DNA from: Mobula hypostoma
Lineage: Eukaryota
Length of the DNA: 64,000 nucleotides
Direction: 5' to 3'
NCBI RefSeq assembly: GCF_963921235.1
Contig: NC_086097.1
Location: forward strand, 57,972,001-58,036,000
The notes under the pieces were generated by a model that worked only from the letters and a program-made list of their open reading frames with translations, searched no databases and was not told where the DNA came from. This document shows positions 7,268 through 64,000 of this stretch, piece by piece (the first letter of the stretch is position 1; each line of letters starts with the position of its first letter). The position numbers and the translations under genes were made by a program.

Positions 7268-10200
7268 TTGGGGGGTGGGAATCAAATTAAAGAGGCTAGG
7301 CGTGAGGAGGTTAGTTCACAACAGAGGGATGGGAACCAGTGCAGAGAGACAGAGGGGTGTAAAGTGAGGGTAGAAGCAAAAAGTACAAAGGAGAAAAGTA
7401 AAAGTGGCAGGCCGACAAATCCAGGGCAAGCATTAAAAAGGGCCACTTTTCAACATAATTGCATAAGGGCTAAGAGAGTTGTAAAAGAGCACTTGAAGGC
7501 TTTATGTGTCAATGCAAGGAGCATTCGTAATAAGGTGGATGAATTGAAAGTGCAGATTGTTATTAATGATTATGATATAGTTGGGATCACAGAGATATGG
7601 CTCCAGGGTGACCAGGGATGGGAGCTCAACGTTCAGGGATATTCAATATTCAGGAGGGATAGACATGAAGGAAGGGGAGGTGGGGTGGCGTTGCTGGTTA
7701 AAGAAGAGATTAACGCAATAGAAAGGAAGGACATAAGCCGGGAAGATGTGGAATCGATATGGGTAGAGCTGCGTAACACTAAGGGGCAGAAGACGCTGGT
7801 GGGAGTTGTGTACAGGCCACCTAACAGTAGTAGTGAGGTCGGAGATGGTATTAAACAGGAAATTAGAAATGTGTGCAATAAAGGAACAGCAGTTATAATG
7901 GGTGACTTCAATCTACATGTAGATTGGGTGAACCAAATTGGTAAAGGTGCTGAGGAAGAGGACTTCTTGGAATGTATGCGGGATGGTTTTTTGAACCAAC
8001 ATGTCGAGGAACCAACTAGAGAGCAGGCTATTCCGGACTGGGTTTTGAGCAATGAGGAAGGGTTAATTAGCGATCTTGTCGTGAGAGGCCCCTTGGGTAA
8101 GAGTGACCATAATATGGTGGAATTCTTCATTAAGATGGAGAGTGACATAGTTAATTCAGAAACAAAGGTTCTGAACTTAAAGAGGGGTAACTTTGAAGGT
8201 ATGAGACGTGAATTAGCTAAGATAGACTGGCAAATGACACTTAAAGGATTGACGGTGGATATGCAATGGCAAGCATTTAAAGGTTGCATGGATGAACTAC
8301 AACAATTGTTCATCCCAGTTTGGCAAAAGAATAAATCAAGGAAGGTAGTGCACCCTGGCTGACAAGAGAAATTAGGGATAGTATCAATTCCAAAGAAGAA
8401 GCATACAAATTAGCCAGAGAAAGTGGCTCACCTGAGGACTGGGAGAAATTCAGAGTTCAGCAGAGGAGGACAAAGGGCTTAATTAGGAAGGGGAAAAAAG
8501 ATTATGAGAGAAAACTGGCAGGGAACATAAAAACGGACTGTAAAAGCTTTTATAGGTATGTAAAAAGGAAAAGACTGGTAAAGACAAATGTAGGTCCCCT
8601 GCAGACAGAAACAGGTGAATTGATTATGGGGAGCAAGGACATGGCAGACCAATTGAATAATTACTTTGGTTCTGTCTTCACTAAGGAGGACATAAATAAT
8701 CTTCCAGAAATAGTAAGGGACAGAGGGTCCAGTGAGATGGAGGAACTGAGCGAAATACATGTTAGTAGGGAAGTGGTGTTAGGTAAATTGAAGGGATTGA
8801 AGGCAGATAAATCCCCAGGGCCAGATGGTCTGCATCCCAGAGTGCTTAAGGAAGTAGCCCAAGAAATAGTGGATGCATTAGTGATAATTTTTCAAAACTC
8901 GTTTGATTCTGGACTAGTTCCTGAGGATTGGAGGGTGGCTAATGTAACCCCATTTTTTAAAAAAGGAGGGAGAGAGAAACCGGGGAATTATAGACCGGTT
9001 AGCCTAACGTCGGTGGTGGGGAAACTGCTGGAGTCAGTTATCAAGGATGTGATAACAGCACATTTGGAAAGCGGTGAAATGATCGGACAAAGTCAGCATG
9101 GATTTGTGAAAGGAAAATCATGTCTGACGAATCTCATAGAATTTTTTGAGGATGTAACTAGTAGAGTGGATAGGGGAGAACCAGTGGATGTGGTATATTT
9201 GGATTTTCAAAAGGCTTTTGACAAGGTCCCACCCAGGAGATTAGTGTGCAAACTTAAAGCACACGGTATTGGGGGTAAGGTATTGGTGTGGGTGGAGAAT
9301 TGGTTAGCAGACAGGAAGCAAAGAGTGGGAATAAACGGGACCTTTTCAGAATGGCAGGCGGTGACTAGTGGGGTACCGCAAGGCTCAGTGCTGGGACTCC
9401 AGTTGTTTACAATATATATTAATGACTTGGATGAGGGAATTAAATGCAGCATCTCCAAGTTTGCGGATGACACGAAGCTGGGTGGCAGTGTTAGCAGTGA
9501 GGAGGATGCTAAGAGGATGCAGGGTGACTTGGATAGGTTGGGTGAGTGGGCAAATTCATGGCAGATGCAATTTAATGTGGATAAATGTGAAGTTATCCAC
9601 TTTGGTGGCAAAAATAGGAAAACAGATTATTATCTGAATGGTGGCCGATTAGGAAAAGGGGAGGTGCAACGAGACCTGGGTGTCATTATACACCAGTCAT
9701 TGAAAGTGGGCATGCAGGTACAGCAGGCGGTGAAAAAGGCGAATGGTATGCTGGCATTTATAGTGAGAGGATTCGAGTACAGGAGCAGGGAGGTACCACT
9801 GCAGTTGTACAAGGCCTTGGTGAGACCACACCTGGAGTATTGTGTGCAGTTTTGGTCCCCTAATCTGAGGAAAGACATCTTTGCCATAGAGGGAGTACAA
9901 AGAAGGTTCACCAGATTGATTCCTGGGATGGCAGGACTTTCATATGAAGAAAGACTGGATGAACTGGGCTTGTACTCGTTGGAATTTAGAAGATTGAGGG
10001 GGGATCTGATTGAAACGTATAAGATCCTAAAGGGACTGGACAGGCTAGATGCAGGAAGATTGTTCCTGATGTTGGGGAAGTCCAGAACGAGGGGCCACAG
10101 TTTGAGGATAGAAGGGAAGCCTTTTAGGACCGAGATTAGGAAAAACTTCTTCACACAGAGAGTGGTGAATCTGTGGAATTCTCTGCCACAGGAAACTGTT

Positions 10201-10299
10201 GAGGCCAGTTCATTGGCTATATTGAAGAGGGAGTTAGATATGGCCCTTGTGGCTACGGGGGTCAGGGGGTATGGAGGGAAGGCTGGGGCGGGGTTCTGA
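7268..10299 (+). pseudogene. CR1 ORF2 (APE endonuclease + reverse transcriptase) with one frameshift at ~8356
   Basis: NARSI, GITEIW, YRPP, GDFN and SDH endonuclease motifs; RT FADD. CACCC-TGG here versus CACCCGTGG in the twin copy at ~41015 shows a 1-nt deletion. Confidence 0.95.
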
Positions 10300-10609
10300 G
10301 TTGGATGATCAGCCATGATCATAATAAATGGCGGTGCAGGCTCGAAGGGCCGAATGGCCTACTCCTGCACCTATTTTCTATGTTTCTATGTTTCTATGTA
10401 TGAATAATCTACTGTGAAAAAGGAACAGAAGCCTTCTAAGCCAGCTGGCTGATGGGAAAAATCAAGGGCTCTGAGTAAGGGACAGAGAAGATACGGCAAG
10501 TGTGGTCATCCTGAGCGAGGACAGCAGAGTCATGCCGCATGAAAGTCACTGGAATTCCTCTGAACTGCATCAACTGGAATTGGAATTGCTTCATTATTGC
10601 CACATGCTT

Positions 10610-28906: not shown

Positions 28907-29997
28907 ACTTTGAAATTAATGGCATTGTGGTCACTAGGTGCAAAGTGTTCCCTACACAAACTTCTGTCACCTGCCCTGTCTCACTCCCTAATAGGAGACC
29001 AGTACCGCATCTCATTCATTTTGATTTGCATTACGGGGAATACGTCAAGAGGAGTGTCCTGTCTCATAAATTTTTCATGTATTTCCTTTTCCAAGGGTAA
29101 AGGGACATCCATCAGCATTTCCATGATTAGTCAGCCTCTTGAATTCAATCTTGTAATTGTGTCCTCCAAGAAACAGAGCCTCATCTCTGCATTCGTGCTC
29201 CTCCTGTTAGTGGAACTTCCTTCTGTGGATTGAAAATGGACATTAGTGGTTGATGATCAGTAACAAGGGTAAATTCTCTTCCATACAAATACTGGTTGAA
29301 AAGTTTTACCCCCAAAACGAAACTCAAGGTCCCTTTATCAATCTGTTTCTGTGCAGTGGCAGGGGAACATGAGGCAAAGACCATAAATAAAGGTCTTTTA
29401 TTGCAATCACTCATATCATGTGTCATGACTGCACCTATACCCTAAGGTGACCCATCACAAGCAAGCTTCGCTGGATGATGTGGATCACAATGTGTGAGTA
29501 CAGTGTCTGATGCCACTATTTCCTTTACATTGCTTTATCCATTGCCATTTCTTCCCGATCTGCAGTGTTGAGTTCAAGGGGTGGAGTACAGTAGCCAGGT
29601 TTGGCAGGAACCTGTTAAACTAATTGACAAGTCCTAAAAAGGACCATAACTGTCCTCTGAGCAGCCTTACAGTACCTGGTCCATAAATTTCTGCCAGAGT
29701 GCAGGTGCAGATGCTACTCCAAAAATAAGCCTAATAAAGCAATAAAGTCCTTTATAAGTGTTTATGGTGGGAAACACTTTAGTTGTTCATTATGCTCTAT
29801 GTCGTATGACTTGGACAATCATGCTCTTTCCATGACCATGATTGTTTCTGGCAAATATTTCTACAGAAGTTGTCATTGCCTTCTTCTGGGTAGAGTCTTT
29901 GCAAGACGGGTGATCTGAGCCATTATCAATACTCTTCAAAGAATTTTTTCAAAGATAGATTTCATATTGTAAATTTAAAGACTAACAATAGACAAGC

Positions 29998-30145
29998 AAA
30001 CAAGAGAAAATCTGTAGATGCTGGAAATCAAAGCAACACACAAAAAATGCTAGAGGAACTCAGCAGGCCAGGCAGCATCTATGGAAAAGAGTAAACAGTC
30101 GAAGATTTCGGCCTAGACCTTTCAACAGGATGGGAAAAAAGATGA
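29998..30145 (-). mobile_element. Penelope pseudo-LTR fragment with a decayed hammerhead motif
   Basis: Minus strand reads CTGTTGA-AAGGTCTAGGCC-GAAATCTTCGACTG followed by the PLE 3' end. Confidence 0.8.
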
Positions 30146-30214
30146 GATTAGGTTGTAAATCACCCCCATCATTGCAAAGTGCTTTGAGAGACTAGTTTAT
30201 CACATCTGAAATCT

Positions 30215-32376
30215 TGTCTGCCCACTACCCTGGACCCCCATCAATTTGCCTATCACACCAACAGGTCAACAGAGGATGCTATTGTTGTGGCGTGGATGAA
30301 ATCACTGGAGAGACACAGTCACTGGTAGATACAAAGCAGCTTCTTTATTCGACACAAGGTACAGCAGGCATCATATGGATGGAGACGCTTTCTGTAGAAA
30401 GGTCTGCTAGCCCAATGTGGGCTCTGTATTTATATGCTAAACACAAAAGGCAATTGCTACTTTCAAAGTTATAGATAATGCATAGACAATGCTTCCTTTT
30501 GAAGCTACATACAAAACATCACACCTTCTGACTTCATCCTTTCCTCCTGACGCCAACATGTCTGGGTTGGTACTCCCAGCCTTTAGGAATGCAAGTTAAA
30601 TCCACAGTACATTTATTTGGTATTTTATGTGCTACATAGAGGACAATTAATATTTATAACGTATAGATAATACTGTCTTCAAAACTACAGCATCTGGTCA
30701 ACCTACGGCATCAGCAGCATCTGGTATTCACAGCTTTTAGGAAATACATTGTTATGAAGTCAATCCACAGTACTTTGTCAAACAGAAGACTGGTGGCCAG
30801 AGTCAGTTAAGTGTAAATGAATCATCTACCCAAAACTCACTCTAACACCATCTCCACGGCACTTCACTCTGCCCTGACCCACCTGGACAGCCCCAACTCA
30901 TTGACTTTAGTTCAGCATTCAATACTGTGATCCCCGCCAAGCTGGTTGCCAAACTTCGCCAGCTTGGTATCAGCTCATCCCTTTGCAATTGGACCTTGGA
31001 CCTTCTGACTAACAGACCCCAATCAGTTAAGTTAGACAACCTCTCCTCCTCCACTCTCACCCTGAACACCGGTGTGCCTCAAGGCTGTGTGCTGAGCCAT
31101 CTTCTGTACTCCCTTTTCACCTATGACAGTGTTCCTGTACATGGTTCTAACTCCATAATCAAGTTTGCAGATGACACCACGGTGGTTGGCCTGATCGGCC
31201 TACAGGGACGAGGTCCAGCACCTGACCGCATGGTGTGCCGACAACAACCTGGCCCTTAACGCCCAAAAGACAAGGAGATCATTGTGGACTTCAGGCATGC
31301 TAGGAGCCACACTCACGTCCCCATCTACATCAACAGAGCTGTAGTGGAGCGTGTATCAAGTTTCAAATTCCTTGGTGTCCACATTTCCGAGGATCTCACC
31401 TGGTCCCTGAACTCCTCCATCCTGATCAAAAAAGTGCAACAGCGCCTTTATTTCCTGCGGAGCATCAAGAAAGCTCACCTCTGTCCCAGGATACTGATGG
31501 ACTTTTACTGCTGTACCACTGAGAGCATACTCACCAACTTCATCTCAGTGTGGTATGGAAATTGTCCCGTATCGGACTGCAAAGCACTCCAGCGTGTGGT
31601 GAAAACTGCCCAGCGGATTATCTGCACCCAATTGCCCACCATTGAGAATATCTACCATAAACGCTGCCTGGGCAGGGCGAAAAGCATTATCAAGGATGCA
31701 TCTCACCCTAACCATGGACTTTTTACTCTCCTCCCATCTGGTAGGCGCTACAGGAGCCTCCACTCCCGCACCAGCAGGCACAGGAAGAGCTTCTTCCCTG
31801 AGGCTGTGACACTGCTGAACCTCACATCACAGTGCTAAGCTGTATTGCATCCATATTGTACTGTTTCAGTACTCATACTTTACTTTATTGTCGTCAAACA
31901 ATTGATACTAGAGCGTACAATCATTACAGCGATATTTGATTCTGCGCTTTGCGCTCCCTGGAGTACAAGTCGATAGTAAATAGCAAACATTTAAATTATA
32001 GATCATAAATAGAAATTAGAAAAGAGAACGTAAGGTAGTGCAAAAAAACCGAGAGGCAGGTCCGGATATTTGAAGGGTACAGTCCAGATCCAGGTCAGGA
32101 TCTGTTCAGCAGTCTTATCACAGTTGGAAAGAAGGTGTTCTTAAATCTGGCCGTACGAGTCTTCATGCTCCTGAGACTTCACCCGGAGGGAAGAGGGACG
32201 AAAAGTGTGCTTTATATTTGTGTGCTGTAGCACTTAATTTTTATTCACAGTTATTTTGTAAATAACACTATTCTTTGCTTTTCTGGTTAGATGCTAACTG
32301 CATTTCATTGGCTTTGTATCTGTACTCGGCACGTTGACAATAAAGTTGAATCTAATCTGATCTAATCTAAATCTAA
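30215..32376 (+). mobile_element. Rex1/Babar-like LINE (RT + C-terminal region) interrupted by a solo LTR and an antisense Rex tail (~31875-32208)
   Basis: [56 protein letters not shown]; (TCTAA)n tail. Confidence 0.9.
30283..30847 (-). mobile_element. Solo LTR (565 bp)
   Basis: TG...CA ends; 4-bp TSD CTAT/CCAT (one mismatch) whose removal restores the Rex frame STEDAIST; minus-strand TATA (~30430) and AATAAA (~30345); internal imperfect repeats. Confidence 0.75.
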
Positions 32377-33079
32377 AGAGTAACTACTCCTGTGTCACTC
32401 TCATCATTATCAGATTTTTCATCAACAACATGCAGATTAGTGCTCTTCCGTGCTCTGCAACTTGACTTTTTATCTTTTTCTCTTCCCTGTGCAGTCCATT
32501 TATTTTTGCTTGCCTGACATGGTCTTTGTATGAGTCCTACTTTGTAGCATTTTCTGCAAGTTTCACCTTAAAAATCTGCATTGGTCTGGTGTATGTGAAT
32601 CCCTGCCACAACAGTAACACAATTTGTTTTGCCAGGCTGGCTTCTTTTAATACGTTGCAATTTTGTTCACGCTCACTTTCATTCCTGATTGCAATTCAGT
32701 TGCATCTCAGTTATTTCCATTGATACAGCTATTCCAGCTTCTCTTTGAAATGTGAGTTGTGCTTCAATTAGGAGCCATTTTTAAATGCTTCCTTGTAAGA
32801 TTCCACAAATAAACAATCTCTGTGCATCATTAAGCCCATCACTGAACTGACAATGCTGAAATAATTTCTTCAATTCAGCATGTATGCTGAAATGGACTCC
32901 CTCTCCTTTTGATTCTGTTTATGAAACCGAAAGCATTTTGCAGTCAACAATGGTTCTAAAAGTTCCTGCATTACTTACACGATATTAGCAAAGCTCGTTT
33001 GGTTGGAGCAGGTAAACTTCTAAGCAAGCTGTATGCTCTTCCATCTAATACACTCTGCAAAGCTGGCACTCACTTTGCA

Positions 33080-35652
33080 TGCAACACCCATAAAAATTGC
33101 TGGGGAACACAGCAGGCTGGGCAACATCTATAGGAAGAGGTACAGTCGATCTTTCGGGCCGAGACCCTTCGTCAGGACTAACTGAAGGAAGAGCTGGTAA
33201 GAAATTTGAAAGTGGGAGAGGGAGGGGGAGATCCAAAATGATAGGAGAAGACAGGAGGGGGAGGGATGGAGCCAAGAGCTGGAAAGTTGATTGGCAAAAG
33301 GGATATGAGAGGATCATGGGACAGGAGGCCTAGGGAGAAAGAAAGGGGGAGGGGGGAAGCCCAGAGGATGTCAGGGAGTATAGTGAGAGGGACAGAGGGA
33401 GAAAAAGGAGAGAGAAAAAAAATAAAATTATATCTATATATATAATAAATGAATAATGGATGGGGTACGAAGGGGAGGTGGGGCATTAACAGAAGTTAGA
33501 GGTCAATGTTCATGCCATCAGGTTGGAGGCTACCCAGACGGAATATAAGGTGTTGTTCCTCCAACCTGAGTGTGGCTTCATCTTGACAGTAGAGGAGGCC
33601 GTGGATAGACATATCAGAATGGGAATGGGATGTGGAATTAAAATGTGTGGCCACTGGGAAATCCTGCTTTCTCTGGCAGACAGAGCGTAGGTGTTCAGCG
33701 AAACCTGCGTCGGGTCTCGCCAATATATAAAAGGCCACATCGGGAGCACCGGACGCAATATATCACCCCAGCCATATCACAGGTGAAGTGTTGCCTCACC
33801 TGGAAGGACTGTCTGGGAACCTGAATGGTGGTGAGGGAGGAAGTGTAAGGGCATGTGTAGCACTTGTTCCGTTTACAAGGATATGTGCCGGGAGGGAGAT
33901 CAGTGGGAAGGGATGGGAGGAACGAATGGACAAGGGAGTCACATAGGGAGCGCTCCCTGTGGAAAACAGAGAGAGGGAGGGAGGGAAAGATGTGCTTAGT
34001 GGTGGGATCCCATTGGAGGTGGCAGAAGTTGCGGAGAATTATATGTTGGACCCGGAGGCTGGTGGGGTGGTAGGTGAGGACAAGGGGAACCCTATTCCTA
34101 GTGGGGTGGCGGGAGGATGGGGTGAGAGCAGATGTGTGTGAAATAGGAGTGATGCGTTTGAGAGCAGAGTTGATGGTGGAGGAAGGGAAGCCCCTTTCTT
34201 TAAAAAAGGACATCTCCTTCATCCTGGAATGAAAAACCTCATCCTGAGAGCAGATGCGGCGGAGATGGAGGAATTGTGAGAAGGGGATGGAATTTTTGCA
34301 AGAAACAGGGTGAGAAGAGGAATAGTCCAGGTAGCTGTGGGAGTCCATAGGCTTATAGTAGACATCAGTAGATAAGCTGTCTCCAGAGATAGAGACAGAA
34401 AGATCCAGAAAGGGGAGGGAGGTGTCGAAAATGGACCAGGTAAACTTGAGGGCAGGGTGAAAGTTGGAGGCAAAGTTAATGAAGTCAATGAGCTCAGCAT
34501 GCGTGCAGGAAGCAGGGCCAATGCAGTCGTCGATGTAGTGAAGAAAAAGTTGGGGACAAATACCAGTATAGTTTTGGAACATGGATTGTTCCACAAAGTC
34601 AACTAAAAGGCAGGCATAGCTGGGATCCATACAGGTGCCCATGGCTACACCTTTAGTTTGGAGGAAGTTGGAGGAGCTAAAGGAGAAATTATTAAGAGTA
34701 AGGACTAATTCTGCTAGACGGAGCAGATTGGTGGTAGAGGGGATCTGGTTAGGTCTGGAATCTAAAAAGAAGCGGAGAGCTTTGAGACCTTCCTGGTGGG
34801 GGATGGAAGTATACAGGGACTGGACATCCATGGTGAAAATAAAGCGGTGGGGGCCAGGGAACTTAAAATCATTGAAAAATTTCACAGCGTGAGGGGTGTC
34901 ACGAACATAGGTAGGAAGGGATTGGACAAGGGGTGATAAAACAGTGTCGAGGTATGCAGAAACGAGTTCGGTGGAGCAGGAGCAAGCTGAGACAATAGGT
35001 CGGCCAGGACAGGCGGGTTTGTGGATCTTGGGTAGGAGGTAGAAACAGGAAGTGCGGGGTGAGGGAACTATAAGGTTGGTAGCAGTGGATGGGAGATCCC
35101 CTGAGCGGATAAAGTCGGTGATGGTTTGGGAGACAATGGTCTGGCGCTCCTTAGTGGGGTCATGATGGAGGGGTAAATAAGAAGAGGTATCCGCGAGTTG
35201 TTGCTGTGCCTCGGTAGAGGTCAGTGCGCCAGACTACAACAGCACCCCCCTTATCGGCGGGTTTTATAGTACGGTTAGGATTAGTGCGGAGGGAGTGGAG
35301 AGCAGAGCGTTCCAAAGGAGTGAGGTTGGAATGGGGACATGGTGCGGTGAAGTCGAGACAGTTGATGTCCCATCGGCAATTAGTGATAAAGAGATCCAGA
35401 GCAGGCAGAAGACCAGAGCGGGGTGTTCATGAAGAAGAGGAGGGTTGAAGATGGGAGAAGGAGTCACCGATGGGGGTGGGAGAGTCCTTGCCGAAGAAGT
35501 AGGCTCGAAGATGGAGCCAGTGGAAGAAGAGTTCAGCGTCATGGCGAATGCGGAATTTGCTGAGGTGTGGGTGAAGAGGGACAAAGGTGAGGCCCTTACT
35601 GAGGACAGAGCATTCTGCCTCAGAGAGTTGAATGTCAGAGGGGATGGTAAAG
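33080..35652 (-). mobile_element. Penelope-like element (probably Neptune group): RT + GIY-YIG endonuclease, 5'-truncated
   Basis: KPADKGGAVV, LPKIHK..PGRPIVS, MDVQSLYTSIP, KGVAMG, YIDD, Cys linker CKRNKCYTC and VIYCVRCSRCGLLYIGET. Inserted into Gypsy gag. Confidence 0.93.
33143..33180 (-). ncRNA. Minimal type I hammerhead ribozyme motif (mutated stem III)
   Basis: UAGUC-CUGACGA-A-GGGUCUCGGCCC-GAAA-GAUC-GACUG: conserved core boxes, GGG/CCC stem II, AGUC/GACU stem I. Confidence 0.75.
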
Positions 35653-36023
35653 ACCTAGCGCAGATGAGGTTTGTGATTGGCTGTTTAATTTGCTTTAAAA
35701 TACTGCTCAATTAACTCTGTATACAATATTCAGTTATCTTTTCTATAATCAAATGTATTTACCTTTCCAATGTAGCCATCTATTTCTTATTTTTTAAATT
35801 TATTATTATTGTCACCCAGTACTCACTGTTTATGAATCTGTGAACCATTCATTTCTGCCTTTTTTAAAATTTGACCATCTCTGTCTCTTCTTGATGAAGC
35901 ATGTGCTGCATTTTTTTTTCACTTGACCATTTCTTACTACACTTTTTAAAAACTTGAACGTCTCGCTGCACTTTAACAGGTAAGTGGTCGTCTCAGGTTC
36001 ATTTAAAACCTCCTTGTCGCCGC

Positions 36024-36264
36024 TGTAATGTGTTTTTATCTCCAAAACATAAAACCTAATCGAAAGAAAAATATGGAGCCAGGAGATGTGTGTCTTAATT
36101 TTGCTTTCACTTTTAGCTTGATGTGCACATATGACATGATGGCATGATGACGTATGCCATTCACATACTTTTGCATATAACCTGTAATAAATTATTTCAA
36201 CGAACAAAGAATGCCGAATCAAACAATATATTTACAATATTACTGGAATATTAAATACACAATA
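36024..36264 (-). repeat. 5' LTR of Gypsy copy A
   Basis: Begins TGT next to a PBS-like motif; clearly similar to the LTR at 61614-61874. Confidence 0.8.
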
Positions 36265-36807: not shown

Positions 36808-38534
36808 TTTGCTTAGCTTTGAAGGTCTCAAAGCTCTACGCTTCTTTTTGGATTCCAGACCTAATCAGTTCCCCTCTACCACCACTCTGCTCCGTCTAGC
36901 GGAATTAGTCCTTACTCTTAATAATTTCTCCTTTGGCTCCTCCCACTTCCTCCAAACTAAAGGTGTAGCTATGGGCACCCGTATGGGTCCTAGCTATGCC
37001 TGCCTTTTTGTTGGCTTTGTGGAACAATCTATGTTCCGTGCCTATTCTGGTATCTGTTCCCCACTTTTCCTTCGCTACATCGACGACTGCATTGGCGCTG
37101 CTTCCTGCACGCAAGCAGAGCTCGTTGACTTTATTAACTTTGCCTCCAACTTTCACCCTGTCCTCAAGTTTACCTGGTCCATTTCCGACACCTCCCTCCC
37201 CTTTCTAGATCTTTCTGTCTCTGTCTCTGGAGACAACTTATCCACTGATGTCTACGACAAGCCTACTGACTCTCACAACTATCTGGAGTATTCCTCTTCT
37301 CACCCTGTCTCTTGCAAAAACGCCATCCCCTTCTCGCAATTCCTCCGTCTCTGCCGCATCTGCTCTCAGGATGAGGCTTTTCATTCTAGGACGAGGGAGA
37401 TGTCTTCCTTTTTTAAAGAAAGGGGCTTCCCTTCCTCCACTATCAACTCTGCTCTTAAACGCATCTCCCCCATTTCACGTACATCTGCTCTCACTCCATC
37501 CTCCCGCCACCACACTAGAAATAGGGTTCCCCTGGTCCTCGCCTACCAACCCACCAGCCTCCGGGTCCAACATATTATTCTCCATAACTTCCGCCACCTC
37601 CAACGGGATCCCACCACTAAGCACATCTTTCCCTCCCCACCACTCTCTGCATTCCGCAGGGATTGCTCCCTACGCAACTCCCTTATCCATTCGTCCCCCC
37701 CCATCCCTCTCCACTGATCTCCCTCCTGGCACTTATCCGTGTAAGCGGAACAAGTGCTACACATGCCCTTACACTTCCTGCCTTACCACCATTCGGGGCC
37801 CCAAACAGTCCTTCCAGGTGAGGCAACACTTCACCTGTGAGTCGGCTGGAGTGATATACTGTGTCCGGTGCTCCCGATGTGGCCTTTTATATATTGGCGA
37901 GACCCGACACAGACTGGGAGACCGCTTTGCTGAACACCTACGCTCTGTCCGTCAGAGAAAGCAGGATCTCCCAGTGGCCACACATTTTAATTCCACATCC
38001 CATTTCCATTCTGATATGTCTATCCACGGCCTCCTCTACTGTAAAGATGAAGCCACACTCAGGTTGGAGGAACAACACCTTATGTTCCGTCTGGGTAGCC
38101 TCCAACCTGATGGCATGAACATCGACTTCTCTAACTTCCGCTAAGGCCCCACCTCCCCCTCGTACCCCATCTGTTACTTATTTTTATGCACACATTCTTT
38201 CTCTCACTCTCCTTTTTCTCCCTCTGTCCCTCTGAATATACCTCTTGCCCATCCTCTGGGTCCCCCCCCCACCCTTGTCTTTCTTCTCGGACCTCCTGTC
38301 CCATGATCCTCTCGTATCCCCTTTTGCCTATCACCTGTCCAGCTCTTGGCTCCATCCCTCCCCCCCACCGTCTTCTCCTATTATTTTGGATCTCCCCCTC
38401 CCCCTCAAACTTTCAAATCCCTTACTCACTCTTCCTTCAGTTAGTCCTGACGAAGGGTCTTGGCCTGAAACATCGACTGTGCCTCTTCATGGGGATGCTG
38501 CCTGGCCTGCTGCGTTCACCAGCAACTTTTGCGT
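36808..38534 (+). mobile_element. Penelope-like element, 5'-truncated, frameshifted in a C-run near 37700
   Basis: RT (KGVAMG, RYIDD) and GIY-YIG domain ending at 38144; 8-bp TSD GTGTTACC at 36800-36807 and 38535-38542. Confidence 0.93.
38442..38479 (+). ncRNA. Minimal type I hammerhead ribozyme motif
   Basis: UAGUC-CUGACGA-AGGGUCUUGGCCU-GAAA-CAUC-GACUG. Differences from the copy at 15953 are all CpG-type transitions. Confidence 0.75.
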
Positions 38535-38974
38535 GTGTTACCCTATATTCAGATTTGAATTTTAAATCCCAGGTAAAGAAAGTGACCAGAGCAGCATTAC
38601 TACAGTTAAAAAATTGTAAAGCTGTGTCTGTTCCTGTCATGCAATGATGCTGAAAAGCTAATTCGTGCCTTTATATCGAATAGACTAGATTACTGCAAAG
38701 CACTTTTTAAGTCCTTCCAAAGCAATCTATTAACAAACTTCAACACATTCAGAACACCCCACTTTTAACTAAAACCAGGAAGAGGGAACACATCACTCTC
38801 ATTTCCACTACTCTGCATTGGCTTCCTGCATCTTTTTGAATTGATTTGAAGTTCTCTTAATTGTTTTTAAAGCTTTGAATGGTCTGGTATTGGAGTACAT
38901 CACCGAATGACTTTCATTTTATAATCCTGCTTGTGCTCTCAGGTCCTCTTCTGCCGGTCTCTTAAACTTAAACA

Positions 38975-41376
38975 TAGAAACATAGAAACATAGAAAATAG
39001 GTGCAGGAGTAGGCCATTCGGCCCTTCGAGCCTGCACCGCCATTTATTATGATCATGGCTGATCCTCCAACTCAGAACCCCGCCCCAGCCTTCCCTCCAT
39101 ACCCCCTGACCCCCGTAGCCACAAGGGCCATATCTAACTCCCTCTTAAATATAGCCAATGAACTGGCCTCAACTGTTTCCTGTGGCAGAGAATTCCACAG
39201 ATTCACCACTCTCTGTGTGAAGAAGTTTTTCCTAATCTCGGTCCTAAAAGGCTTCCCCTCTATCCTCAAACTGTGGCCCCTCGTTCTGGACTTCCCCAAC
39301 ATCGGGAACAATCTTCCTGCATCTAGCCTGTCCAATCCCTTTAGGATCTTATACGTTTCAATCAGATCCCCCCTCAATCTTCTAAATTCCAACGAGTACA
39401 AGCCCAGTTCATCCAGTCTTTCTTCATATGAAAGTCCTGCCATCCCAGGAATCAATCTGGTGAACCTACTTTGTACTCCCTCTATGGCAAGAATGTCTTT
39501 CCTCAGATTAGGGGACCAAAACTGCACACAATACTCCAGGTGTGGTCTCACCAAGGCCTTGTACAACTGCAGTAGTACCTCCCTGCTCCTGTACTCGAAT
39601 CCTCTTGCTATAAATGCCAGCATATCATTCACCTTTTTCACCGCCTGCTGTACCTGCATGCCCACTTTCAATGACTGGTGTATAATGACACCCAGGTCTC
39701 GTTGCACCTCCCCTTTTCCTAATCGGCCACCATTCAGATAATAATCTGTTTTCCTATTTTTGCCACCAAAGTGGATAACTTCACATTTATCCACATTAAA
39801 TTGCATCTGCCATGAATTTGCCCACTCACACAACCTATCCAAGTCACCCTGCATCCTCTTAGCATCCTCCTCACTGCTAACACTGCCACCCAGCTTCGTG
39901 TCATCTGCAAACTTGGAGATGCTGCATTTAATTCCCTCATCCAAGTCATTAATATATATGGTAAACAACTGGGGTCCCAGCACTGAGCCTTGCGGTACCC
40001 CACTAGTCACCGCCTGCCATTCTGAAAAGGTCTCGTTTATTCCCACTCTTTGCTTCCTGTCTGCTAACCAATTCTCCACCCACACCAATACCTTACCCTC
40101 AATACCGTGTGCTTTAAGTTTGCACACTAATCTCCTGTGTGGGACCTTGTCAAAAGCCTTTTGAAAATCCAAATATACCACATCCACTGGTTCTCCCCTA
40201 TCCACTCTACTAGTTACATCCTCAAAAAATTCTATGAGATTCGTCAGACATGATTTTCCTTTCACAAATCCATGCTGACATTGTCCGATCATTTCACCGC
40301 TTTCCAAATGTGCTGTTATCACATCCTTGATAACTGACTCCAGCAGTTTCCCCACCACCGACGTTAGGCTAACCGGTCTATAATTCCCCGGTTTCTCTCT
40401 CCCTCCTTTTTTAAAAAGTGGAGTTACATTAGCCACCCTCCAATCCTCAGGAACTAGTCCAGAATCTAACGAGTTTTGAAAAATTATCACTAATGCATCC
40501 ACTATTTCTTGGGCTACTTCCTTAAGCACTCTAGGATGCAGACCATCTGGCCCTGGGGATTTATCTGCCTTCAATCCCTTCAATTTATCTAACACCACTT
40601 CCCTACTAACATGTATTTCGCTCAGTTCCTCCATCTCACTGGACCCTCTGTCCCTTACTATTTCTGGAAGATTATTTATGTCCTCCTTAGTGAAGACAGA
40701 ACCAAAGTAATTATTCAATTGGTCTGCCATGTCCTTGCTCCCCATAATCAATTCACCTGTTTCTGTCTGCAGGGGACCTACATTTGTCTTTACCAGTCTT
40801 TTCCTTTTTACATATCTATAAAAGCTTTTACAGTCCGTTTTTATGTTCCCTGCCAGTTTTCTCTCATAATCTTTTTTCCCCTTCCTAATTAAGCCCTTTG
40901 TCCTCCTCTGCTGAACTCTGAATTTCTCCCAGTCCTCAGGTGAGCCACTTTCTCTGGCTAATTTGTATGCTTCTTCTTTGGAATTGATACTATCCCTAAT
41001 TTCTCTTGTCAGCCACGGGTGCACTACCTTCCTTGATTTATTCTTTTGCCAAACTGGGATGAACAATTGTTGTAGTTCATCCATGCAACCTTTAAATGCT
41101 TGCCATTGCATATCCACCGTCAATCCTTTAAGTGTCATTTGCCAGTCTATCTTAGCTAATTCACGTCTCATACCTTCAAAGTTACCCCTCTTTAAGTTCA
41201 GAACCTTTGTTTCTGAATTAACTATGTCACTCTCCATCTTAATGAAGAATTCCACCATATTATGGTCACTCTTACCCAAGGGGCCTCTCACGACAAGATC
41301 GCTAATTAACCCTTCCTCATTTCTCAAAGCCCAGTCCAGAATAGCCTGCTCTCTGGTTGGTTCCTCGACATGTTCC
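38975..41376 (-). mobile_element. Young 5'-truncated CR1, near-identical to 6871-10398
   Basis: (CATAGAAA)n antisense tail; TAAACA duplication at 38969-38974 and 41377-41382. Confidence 0.97.
39072..41327 (-). CDS. CR1 ORF2 open reading frame (751 aa; RT intact, endonuclease truncated, no native start)
   Basis: Uninterrupted ORF with all RT motifs (FADD), but the element is 5'-truncated inside the endonuclease, so expression is unlikely. Confidence 0.6.
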   Translation of the reverse strand: MRNEEGLISDLVVRGPLGKSDHNMVEFFIKMESDIVNSETKVLNLKRGNFEGMRRELAKIDWQMTLKGLTVDMQWQAFKGCMDELQQLFIPVWQKNKSRKVVHPWLTREIRDSINSKEEAYKLARESGSPEDWEKFRVQQRRTKGLIRKGKKDYERKLAGNIKTDCKSFYRYVKRKRLVKTNVGPLQTETGELIMGSKDMADQLNNYFGSVFTKEDINNLPEIVRDRGSSEMEELSEIHVSREVVLDKLKGLKADKSPGPDGLHPRVLKEVAQEIVDALVIIFQNSLDSGLVPEDWRVANVTPLFKKGGREKPGNYRPVSLTSVVGKLLESVIKDVITAHLESGEMIGQCQHGFVKGKSCLTNLIEFFEDVTSRVDRGEPVDVVYLDFQKAFDKVPHRRLVCKLKAHGIEGKVLVWVENWLADRKQRVGINETFSEWQAVTSGVPQGSVLGPQLFTIYINDLDEGIKCSISKFADDTKLGGSVSSEEDAKRMQGDLDRLCEWANSWQMQFNVDKCEVIHFGGKNRKTDYYLNGGRLGKGEVQRDLGVIIHQSLKVGMQVQQAVKKVNDMLAFIARGFEYRSREVLLQLYKALVRPHLEYCVQFWSPNLRKDILAIEGVQSRFTRLIPGMAGLSYEERLDELGLYSLEFRRLRGDLIETYKILKGLDRLDAGRLFPMLGKSRTRGHSLRIEGKPFRTEIRKNFFTQRVVNLWNSLPQETVEASSLAIFKRELDMALVATGVRGYGGKAGAGF

Positions 41377-61613: not shown

Positions 61614-64000
61614 GGTTTATGTTTTGTAACTTCAAAACACTAACCTAATTAGAAAACAAAAGCAATGGTGTCCTAAATGATGTGAGTTTTAGTTTGTTCT
61701 TTACTTTATAAAGCGAGGCGTGCATGTTTCATGTGGTAGTGCGATGATGTATGTAGCTCGTGTATTTATATATATATAACCCGTAAGAATTATTTAAATG
61801 AATAAGAGTCCTTAATCAACCAATATATACATATGAGATTACTCAAATATTATTGAAATATTAAATGCACAACACTCCTCCCTGCCTGGCTATAAACCCC
61901 AACTCAATAGAAATTTCAACTATATACACAAAATACCATACAATACAACTACTATACAGTCATCCACAGGATGGTAAACTTTCAATTGTCCCATTCAGTC
62001 CTAAAGATTTAATCATTGTGGAGGATTTCTTACTCTTGTGGGATAACATCTTTCCTGACAAGGGGGTTGGGGGGGCCACTCTGTTTGGCAGGTGAGACCT
62101 GTGGCTGTGAAAACTATCTCAGGTTCCGGGGCTTCCTCCATGATGGTTGTAGGAGCTGATTCTGACAATGCATGAAATAGTTCTGACAGCTTTGGACACC
62201 TTTCTTTTCCTTCTTTCTTCTTCTTCTTCCTCCAGTTTATGCATCTTGATCTTCGGAAGGTACTTGTAGGTCACTGGAGTATTTGTCCTTCTATCACTCT
62301 CTTTAATTTCTGATCTCTCCTCTTTGTTTCCACATCTGCAATATCATTTGATGAATCCTCTATTTTCATATCTTCTTTGACTCCTTTCTTTTTGACCTTC
62401 CAGTCACCCAGGTGAGCTTTGGTCTTTGCATTCATTTTACAAGCAGCTTTTTGTCTCCTGCTTGAAGTTCACGCAATAACCTTAAGGTACACAGAGTAGA
62501 TTCTGGTTTTTTGAACTCACAAAAGCTGAATGTTTGCAACATTCCTGAAGCTCCTTGAGCTCTATTCCAGCTTAAAACCAAGACACATTTTGCAATGTGT
62601 AACTGCCTGATTAACATATCAGAAGCTTTCTCAAATATGTTGCATATGCAAGCTGTTGTAGTTGGACCCCATTTCTTTTGTCACTTCTATGATTCCTCTG
62701 AGCAACATGGCTCTTCCTTGGTCCAATATGCCTTCCTACCAGAGGTACAGAAGTTGGCACCAACATCTGTTGGCTCCCTTTTTGGTAATAGTTCATGATG
62801 TACAACAGGGAGACTGTTGTGGCATCATCCAATACTGCTCTTCATTCACTTTCAGTTGACTGTATTGCAGGGGATGTGGCACCGAAATGGTGGATGGATC
62901 TCCAACCAAGTTGTAGTTGTCTCAGCCACTCATGACCCTACAATGCAGGCCCATTGTGGCTTGCTGGTTGTTGTAGTTCACTGTCATGAATGCCTTTCCC
63001 ACAGGAGTTATCTTTTCTCCAGTATAAGTTCTCAGTTGGATATCTGTAGGCTTCAGTTTAGTATCTTGGAAATGCCATTCAAACTCATTTTGTGGAATGA
63101 CTGAAGCCACCAAGTCAGTGTCCAATTACATTTTAATTAATTTGCCATTCATTTCTGGTGTAAGCCATATTGCTTGTCTACTGTTAGCTTTTACATTGTA
63201 ATCCTCAAGATTAGCCAGTCCTATGTCACTCTCATCATTATCAAATTTTTCATCAACAGCATGAAGATTAATGCTTTTTTGAAGCTGCAACTGACTTTTT
63301 ATCTTTTTCTCTTTCCTATGCAGTCCATTTATTTCTATCTGCCTGACATACTTTTCATATGTCCTACTTTGCTGCATTTTCGGCAAGTTTCACCTTCAAA
63401 TCTGCATTGGTCTGGTGAATGTGAATTCCTACCACAATGGTAACACAATTTGTTTGGGCAAGCTAGCTTCTATTTAACACTGCAATTTTGTTCACACTCA
63501 CTTTCATTTCTGACTGCAACACTATTGCATCTCTGTCTGCTGTTTCTATTGGTACAGCTATTTCAACTTCTCTTTTAAATGTAAGTTGTGCTTCAGTTGG
63601 AAGCCGTTTTGAATGCTTTCTTGTAAGATTCTGCAAACTAAATGGTCTCTCAATGCATCACTAAGCCCATTGCCAAACTGACAAAGCTGAGACAACTTTT
63701 TCAATTCAGCCACATATGCTGAAATGAACTCACCTTCCTTTTGATTTCACTTATGAAACCTAAAGCATTCTGTAATCAACAACAGTGTTCCCGCATTATT
63801 TTCACAATATCAGCAAAGCTCATTTTGGCTGGTTTGGTTGGAGCAGTCAAACTTCGAAGCAAACTGTATGCATTAAAACCAAATACACACAGTAAAATTG
63901 GTACTAATTTCTTATTGGCTATTTCATTTGCTACAAAATTCTGTTTAATTAGCTCAGTACACATGAGCAAGTTACCCGCTGAGCAATCAAATGTGTCTAC
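61614..64000 (-). mobile_element. Gypsy LTR retrotransposon, copy B: gag, protease, captured insert, 3' region, PPT, 3' LTR; runs off the window
   Basis: Gag AYSLLRSLTAPTKPA, knuckle CYHCGRNSH..QCRF..ETCRKC.KVGH, protease-like IKM*LDTD..ASVIP and GHEWLRQLQL; PPT AGGGAGGAG at 61875-61883; LTR 61614-61874. RT, RNaseH and integrase are absent. Confidence 0.88.
62201..62766 (-). pseudogene. RBM25: Intronless partial retrocopy of RNA-binding protein 25 (RRM and flanks), disabled
   Basis: Reads MLVPTSVPLVGRHIGPRKSH / GPTTTACICNIFEKASDMLIRQLHIAKCVLVLSWNRAQGASGMLQTFSFCEFKKPESTLCTLRLLRELQAGDKKLLVK / AKTKAHLGDWKVKKK...ETKRRDQ...IE / YSSDLQVPS...RKKKKE. Collinear with recalled vertebrate RBM25 (GPTTTVFVGNISEKASDMLIRQLLAKCGLVLSWKRVQGASGKLQAFGFCEYKEPESTLRALRLL). 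Several frameshifts and a stop. Confidence 0.9.

Follow-up and report, generated by a model that had tools for sequence, protein, structure and literature searches.

Acutely transforming retroviruses with gag-onc fusions carry a spliced host piece in frame downstream of gag, are replication-defective and depend on helpers, and the maize LTR retrotransposon Bs1, another carrier of host sequence, is present in low copy number. The transduced host gene sequence of Bs1 has been described (PMC7264820, PMC5131818). Tan et al. (2016) reported LTR-mediated retrocopies in flies, mosquito, zebrafish, chicken and mammals and proposed their re-mobilisation as non-autonomous elements; the nine fly retrocopies described there occupied 18 insertion sites, and two of them were present at more than one site (PMC5131818). 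In crocodilians, Chong et al. (2014) described the endogenous retroviruses CrocERV29, with KIT-ligand in nine copies, and CrocERV31, with nectin3 in six, the captured ORFs being under purifying selection; RSV src and v-Kit are named in the same report as retroviral captures of host genes (PMC4299795).

Here we analysed a 64,000-nucleotide stretch of DNA from Mobula hypostoma (the window), at the end of which lies what is very probably a decayed, 5'-truncated Gypsy copy whose pol region was replaced by a piece of spliced RBM25 mRNA, likely via template switching of the reverse transcriptase (RT), and whose family presumably spread in trans. As in the retrocopies of Tan et al., a partial mRNA without either of its ends stands in place of part of an internal ORF, the LTRs are kept and neither poly(A) nor a target site duplication (TSD) accompanies the insert; microsimilarity at the switch points has a median of 6 bp in that report and amounts to 7 and 9-10 nt in the RBM25 chimera (PMC5131818). 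Unlike those retrocopies, the chimera is present in about 2,100 copies (an estimate), is old (LTR K2P 0.23), shows a series of internal deletions and occurs in a cartilaginous fish (PMC5131818). With the crocodilian elements it shares an ancient capture of host mRNA by a vertebrate LTR element followed by multiplication, and nectin3 likewise replaced a viral gene; those elements are ERV4 retroviruses, whereas the chimera is a Gypsy element in which RT, RNase H and integrase were all replaced, its copies outnumber theirs about 200-fold and it gave no sign of selection (PMC4299795). Host sequence was transduced to form a chimeric gene in Bs1 as well, but this is a plant element with pieces of several host genes (PMC7264820, PMC5131818). 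Unlike the gag-onc retroviruses, the chimera shows no env or infectious stage, and an importance of the fusion protein is unsupported. Among the papers that our literature searches listed, none reported an RBM25-Gypsy family; a Repbase or Dfam entry may exist.

Layout of the chimeric copy in the window

Read on the minus strand, the window copy consists of gag, zinc knuckle, protease, RBM25 insert, Gypsy 3' tail, polypurine tract (PPT) and 3' LTR. Its features are as follows.

62825..64000, minus strand: Gypsy gag (5'-truncated), CCHC zinc knuckle, aspartic protease and linker; stops and frameshifts throughout
about 63338-63469, minus strand: CCHC zinc knuckle (zf-CCHC E=0.004, under the curated cut-off)
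about 62925-63262, minus strand: aspartic protease (tblastn of the Gypsy polyprotein P0121)
62818..62824, minus strand: 5' switch point, at the 7-nt microhomology TGCCACA that the tail of RBM25 exon E3 has in common with the beginning of the Gypsy RT region
62815..62824, minus strand: RBM25 exon E3, last 10 nt (comparison with the parent gene)
62767..62814, minus strand: RBM25 exon A, complete 48-nt in-frame cassette (parent-gene match)
62591..62766, minus strand: RBM25 exon B, where the RRM begins (parent length 171 nt; parent-gene match)
62533..62590, minus strand: RBM25 exon C (58 nt; RRM; parent-gene match)
62373..62532, minus strand: RBM25 exon D, where the RRM ends (parent length 161 nt; matches to the parent gene and to RBM25 proteins)
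62240..62372, minus strand: RBM25 exon E, 5' part (parent-gene match)
62201..62239, minus strand: purine run, in which internal deletions of a longer capture have joined the start of exon G to part of exon H (comparison with longer copies)
62201..62210, minus strand: 3' switch point, where the Gypsy post-integrase tail and RBM25 exon H have the 9-10-nt microhomology (G)GAGAAGAAA in common; the window copy has one mismatch
61888..62200, minus strand: 3' end of the Gypsy pol frame and 3' untranslated region (partner-family alignment)
61875..61887, minus strand: PPT, directly before the 3' LTR
61614..61874, minus strand: 3' LTR of about 260 bp, TGTT start, terminal bases decayed (comparison with family LTRs)

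An initial annotation, made from the letters of the window alone, had placed a Gypsy gag, protease and linker on the minus strand. They were recovered at about 62925-64000 by tblastn with P0121, a Gypsy polyprotein retrieved with the family gag ORF that carries the Pfam domains Retrotrans_gag, aspartyl protease and RVT_1. P0121 aligned to 63781-63608, 63450-63346 and 63262-62892, and its RT part gave zero tblastn matches in the window. Matches to the uncaptured parent of the family (the partner family, see below) end at 62813 and restart at 62209; RT, RNase H and integrase are thus absent, as annotated, and about 3 kb has been replaced. The frames are broken by stops and frameshifts, which agrees with the earlier view of a disabled copy. 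Extension past position 64000, proposed there as a way to find the 5' LTR, did not yield one. Homology to the family ends about 13 bp beyond the window end, so that the copy is 5'-truncated, and the 47 kb upstream contained no same-strand LTR, only LTRs on the opposite strand. Since the window copy has no 5' LTR, neither a TSD nor a date can be obtained for it.

Another element from this Gypsy family, fragmented and of uncaptured type, occupies 29019-36262 of the window on the minus strand; it has an LTR at about 36262-36010, gag pieces down to 32368 and pieces matching partner pol at 29780-29019, with other repeats in between. Its LTR is flanked by inverted repeat arms (33083-34792 and 36821-38539) that are 84-96% complementary. 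Moreover, two LINE-like copies in opposite orientation (7998-10399 and 38972-41374) are 99% identical over about 2.4 kb, which points to recent activity.

The insert derives from a spliced RBM25 mRNA

The insert is a 624-bp intronless stretch of RBM25 (62824-62201, minus strand) with 83% identity to the parent gene in the same genome. The initial annotation was right about the identity and the missing introns; its extent, with one limit at 62766 or possibly about 62810, was too short. The parent gene was found by a search for the PWI domain, which gave four matches in three genes, and examination of 200 kb around one of these matches. It lies at G000:C1:99,819,258-99,832,633 and carries a C-terminal PWI exon, full-length RBM25 proteins map over the locus exon by exon, and the ten modelled exons are all bounded by AG and GT and form a single open frame. 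Five separate exons match the insert at 73-88%, and the introns of 1.7-4.8 kb between parent exons are missing from it. This answers the proposed intron check, as the parent in this genome is a multi-exon gene. Over E3 to E, the window copy is identical to the parent gene at 482 of 580 positions (83%), with indels near 62672, 62598, 62434 and 62285. It retains five exon-exon joins, E3 through E, and hence represents a piece of spliced mRNA. Related copies likewise lack the introns; exons B-E were present in 30 of 30 of them and exon A in 27 of 30.

Searches with exon D of the parent gene returned 345 protein matches, most of the named ones RBM25, with RBM25 proteins matching at 87-100% identity; the best was a shark protein at 100%, which points to a cartilaginous-fish host. 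Pfam gave zero RRM matches on the window's own insert ORFs. Weak PDB matches to the U2AF65 RRM (E 0.007-0.06) were set aside, and the identification as RBM25 comes instead from the genomic parent and the exon D protein matches. The insert runs in the sense of the element, and in the window copy its ends show neither poly(A) nor a target duplication, as first described; 3' anchoring is absent too.

A dispersed family of chimeric elements

A pattern spanning the 5' junction matched 363 places in the genome with at most one mismatch, 80 of them exactly, and the reversed control matched none; the search for further loci with the same junction, proposed at the outset, was thus productive. The ratio of exact to one-mismatch places corresponds to about 14% decay and about 2,100 chimeric copies, an estimate that takes no account of indels or rate variation. 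With the insert as a DNA query, 2,789 candidates were obtained, and the 40 that were scored were 78-80% identical over most of the query, both junctions included. The copies are spread over many contigs, with flanks that differ between them.

Uninterrupted chimeric copies measure 2.4-3.0 kb and have the order LTR-gag-protease-RBM25-tail-LTR. After removal of one duplicate locus (L167 = L012) prior to counting, 22 of 59 chimeric loci retained both LTRs, with TG..CA ends, a primer-site-like sequence and a PPT. The median LTR-LTR K2P distance in these 22 was 0.227 (0.17-0.29). With alignment-guided ends, 19 of the 22 two-LTR copies could be scored for a 5-bp TSD, three being left out for poor ends; the mean was 3.32 of 5 matches versus 1.34 in shuffled pairings, and none of 20,000 shuffles scored as high. 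With ends set by regex, the test had just 5 of the 59 copies to work with and was not significant (p=0.07). The TSDs found per copy indicate that the chimeric copies are independent integrations. Hundreds of dispersed copies that share a junction, paired LTRs and 5-bp TSDs bear out the earlier suggestion of a non-autonomous chimeric LTR family. The arrangement of gag and protease, together with the 5-bp TSD, would make the family a candidate member of the Mag-like clade of Gypsy elements. Diverged joins of exons A and B in contigs of two other organisms hint that the chimeric family may be shared.

The uncaptured partner family and the two switch points

We located the partner family by its junction pattern, which has the same left half as the chimeric one followed by the Gypsy continuation. 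This pattern matched 1,140 places (reversed control 0), so that by matched patterns the chimera is rarer than its parent (363 vs 1,140). Between the same two switch points, the partner interior measures about 3.0 kb (L198, L202). Seven of 11 interior ORF pieces match RVT_1, RT_RNaseH, Integrase_H2C2 or rve in Pfam, and the domain order gag-PR-RT-RNase H-integrase was found in L198, L202 and L207. Partner and chimera have LTR, gag and protease in common, and a comparison of gag-pro in 99 chimeric copies with that in 30 partner copies showed differences at only 5 of 872 columns. The median LTR-LTR K2P distance of the partner is 0.237, with just three of 20 loci datable. None of these 20 partner loci holds an intact autonomous copy; all are decayed, with a longest ORF of 265 aa. 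Four partner-type loci (L195, L199, L209, L214) have interiors of about 0.5-1.9 kb rather than 3 kb, and they are further deletion derivatives or possibly other captures.

Two other search routes led to other Gypsy families. Among 30 loci found via Pfam Integrase_H2C2, none had the tail or LTR of the chimera; among 30 found via P0121, one held a copy of the family as a neighbour and three showed weak gag similarity.

At the 5' junction, TGCCACA is common to Gypsy and the tail of RBM25 exon E3, and the frames of both parents are joined in phase. At the 3' junction, (G)GAGAAGAAA occurs both in exon H of RBM25 and in the Gypsy tail that follows integrase. The initial annotation had noted a purine run here that could belong to either parent; most of it is RBM25 (exons G and H), and only the last 9-10 nt are common to both. 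For a random switch, the chance of a match of at least 7 nt is p=6.7e-4 and that of at least 9 nt p=5e-5. Among the 8 of 20 partner loci inspected here, the full 10-nt 3' match occurs only in the best-preserved copies, and the partner 3' context varies among old copies. The microhomologies at both junctions, of 7 nt and 9-10 nt, support capture by RT template switching, as had been proposed from the window alone.

A series of deletions after the capture

The longest copies (L185, L224, L252) hold about 1.07 kb of mRNA, from the tail of E3 to exon H, which corresponds to position 162 to about 1233 in a model of the mRNA from E2 to H. Other copies have lost differing portions of the purine-rich stretch from exon E to exon H, and those that could be resolved meet at the same junction between exon H and the tail. 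Among 69 copies selected by junction, 19 were short, 13 intermediate and 13 contained exon F (one of them lacking a resolved tail); 24 were unresolved because of later insertions or truncation. The window copy is of the short type. A variant of the Gypsy tail stands right behind the 3' junction in L012, L014, L018, L021, L023, L024 and L232, which include short and intermediate deletion types; its presence in both suggests recombination between co-packaged variants or repeated deletion.

A fossil splice form of RBM25

Two small in-frame exons of the parent gene bear on the form of the captured mRNA: exon x, of 30 nt (L255:8677-8706, corresponding to G000:C1 about 99,837,476-99,837,505), and exon y, of 63 nt (L256:7824-7886, corresponding to G000:C1 about 99,839,823-99,839,885). 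In contigs of eight of eight public runs, whose RNA nature is presumed or unknown, E3 was joined to exon x and then to A or B, and exon y was found in contigs of four of four runs. No E3-A or E3-B join was present among the contig joins listed; contigs drop rare forms, and they reveal exon joins rather than expression levels. The captured mRNA, on the other hand, had E3-A-B without exon x in 29 of 30 copies picked irrespective of junction, the remaining one (L022) being interrupted at this place. The exon x peptide motif was found in none of 121 retrieved proteins. Exon x was either skipped in the germ line or born after the capture. Exon A (L059:7586-7633), a 48-nt cassette, occurred in included and skipped forms in contigs, and a shark RBM25 model (P0001) agrees with it at 14 of 14 aligned residues.

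Origin and spread of the chimera

We propose that the RT of a Gypsy element jumped to a co-packaged host RBM25 mRNA and then back, at two short matching sequences, in what would have been a single germ-line capture of about 1.07 kb. Besides its LTRs, the hybrid would have retained the primer site, the packaging signals and the PPT; RT and integrase supplied by the equally old parent family may have copied it to about 2,100 places. As no intact autonomous copy was seen, it is by inference that we place this mobilisation in trans. Repeated RT slippage in the purine-rich exons with RE repeats would then have produced the shorter variants, including the window copy.

Microhomology-mediated repair that uses cDNA can produce such junctions. 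A tailless retrocopy made by a LINE (RTE- or CR1-primed), or a cDNA patch in the repair of a double-strand break, could therefore have entered a genomic Gypsy copy together with a 3-kb deletion and been mobilised by the LTRs afterwards, in a genome that is rich in LINEs. The insert, however, has no poly(A), TSD or 3' anchoring, and a sense insert that replaces pol with microhomology at both ends is the template-switching pattern described by Tan et al. (PMC5131818). We consider this origin very unlikely, and the RTE-primed retrocopy raised in the initial annotation gained no support; it would in any case alter the first step only, since the subsequent spread was of the LTR type. It is hardly credible that the copies arose by DNA-level segmental duplication of one chimeric locus, a process that would explain the shared junctions and nothing further and is refuted by the TSD of each copy, the differing flanks and the many contigs. 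Template switching followed by retrotransposition of the hybrid remains our preferred account.

Passive or functional cargo

A master copy might have made a Gag-protease-RBM25 polyprotein containing the RRM and the RE-rich region, the protease cutting the RRM part free where protease and RT once met, and this product might have aided RNA packaging, export or the avoidance of splicing. The insert is in sense and its 5' junction in frame; natural ORFs lead from the protease linker into RBM25 in L007, L016, L025, L026 and L030, the RRM is complete (Pfam RRM_1 E=5e-8 in L026) and mostly spared by the deletion variants, and the differences from the present gene that are found in the majority of copies comprise 22 synonymous and 2 missense changes. 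An in-frame 5' junction, though, is expected by chance in one of three cases. The synonymous excess, too, is expected from purifying selection on the parent gene itself: among its four-fold sites 13 of 82 differ, where the rate per copy is 0.099 (p=0.09), and among its zero-fold sites 3 of 365. The deletions lie at repeats that favour slippage, parts of the RRM were lost in L218 and L250, and the chimera did not become commoner than its parent. The family is, moreover, star-like, with nearly no changes shared by sub-lineages, so that selection on a master would be invisible. We regard a functional cargo, favoured by frame and orientation alone, as quite unlikely.

Rare changes in the 99 copies had rates of 0.036, 0.045 and 0.063 (synonymous, missense and stop, respectively) for transitions and 0.018, 0.017 and 0.014 for transversions. 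Such similar rates across site classes indicate that the examined copies are dead and decay neutrally. Changes at intermediate frequency are few; they include three adjacent pairs that resemble ancient CpG sites. No purifying selection on the captured ORF within the chimera was detected in these 99 copies, in which few lineage changes are shared. Nothing in the analysis pointed to a role for the captured RBM25 piece, which was most likely passive cargo. A bolder version, in which the master expressed Gag-protease-RBM25 and packaged or released a host RRM, as a helper-dependent, gag-onc-like Gypsy whose RRM aided the burst to about 2,000 copies and which also preserves a fossil RBM25 splice form without the 30-nt exon, seems to us unlikely.

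Implications

LTR-mediated retroposition was already known (PMC5131818); the copy number and the deletion series are what is unusual here. As both parents are present in one genome, the switch points and the later deletions can be read directly, which makes the family a clean teaching case of template switching. About 2,000 RBM25-like fragments will confuse both the annotation of the RBM25 gene and read mapping. At the same time, the chimeric family records an old RBM25 transcript and helps to date the gain or the tissue-specific skipping of small exons. The vertebrate examples compared here, the crocodilian ERVs, have under ten copies each (PMC4299795); a repeat family of thousands can grow in a vertebrate from one Gypsy capture of host mRNA.
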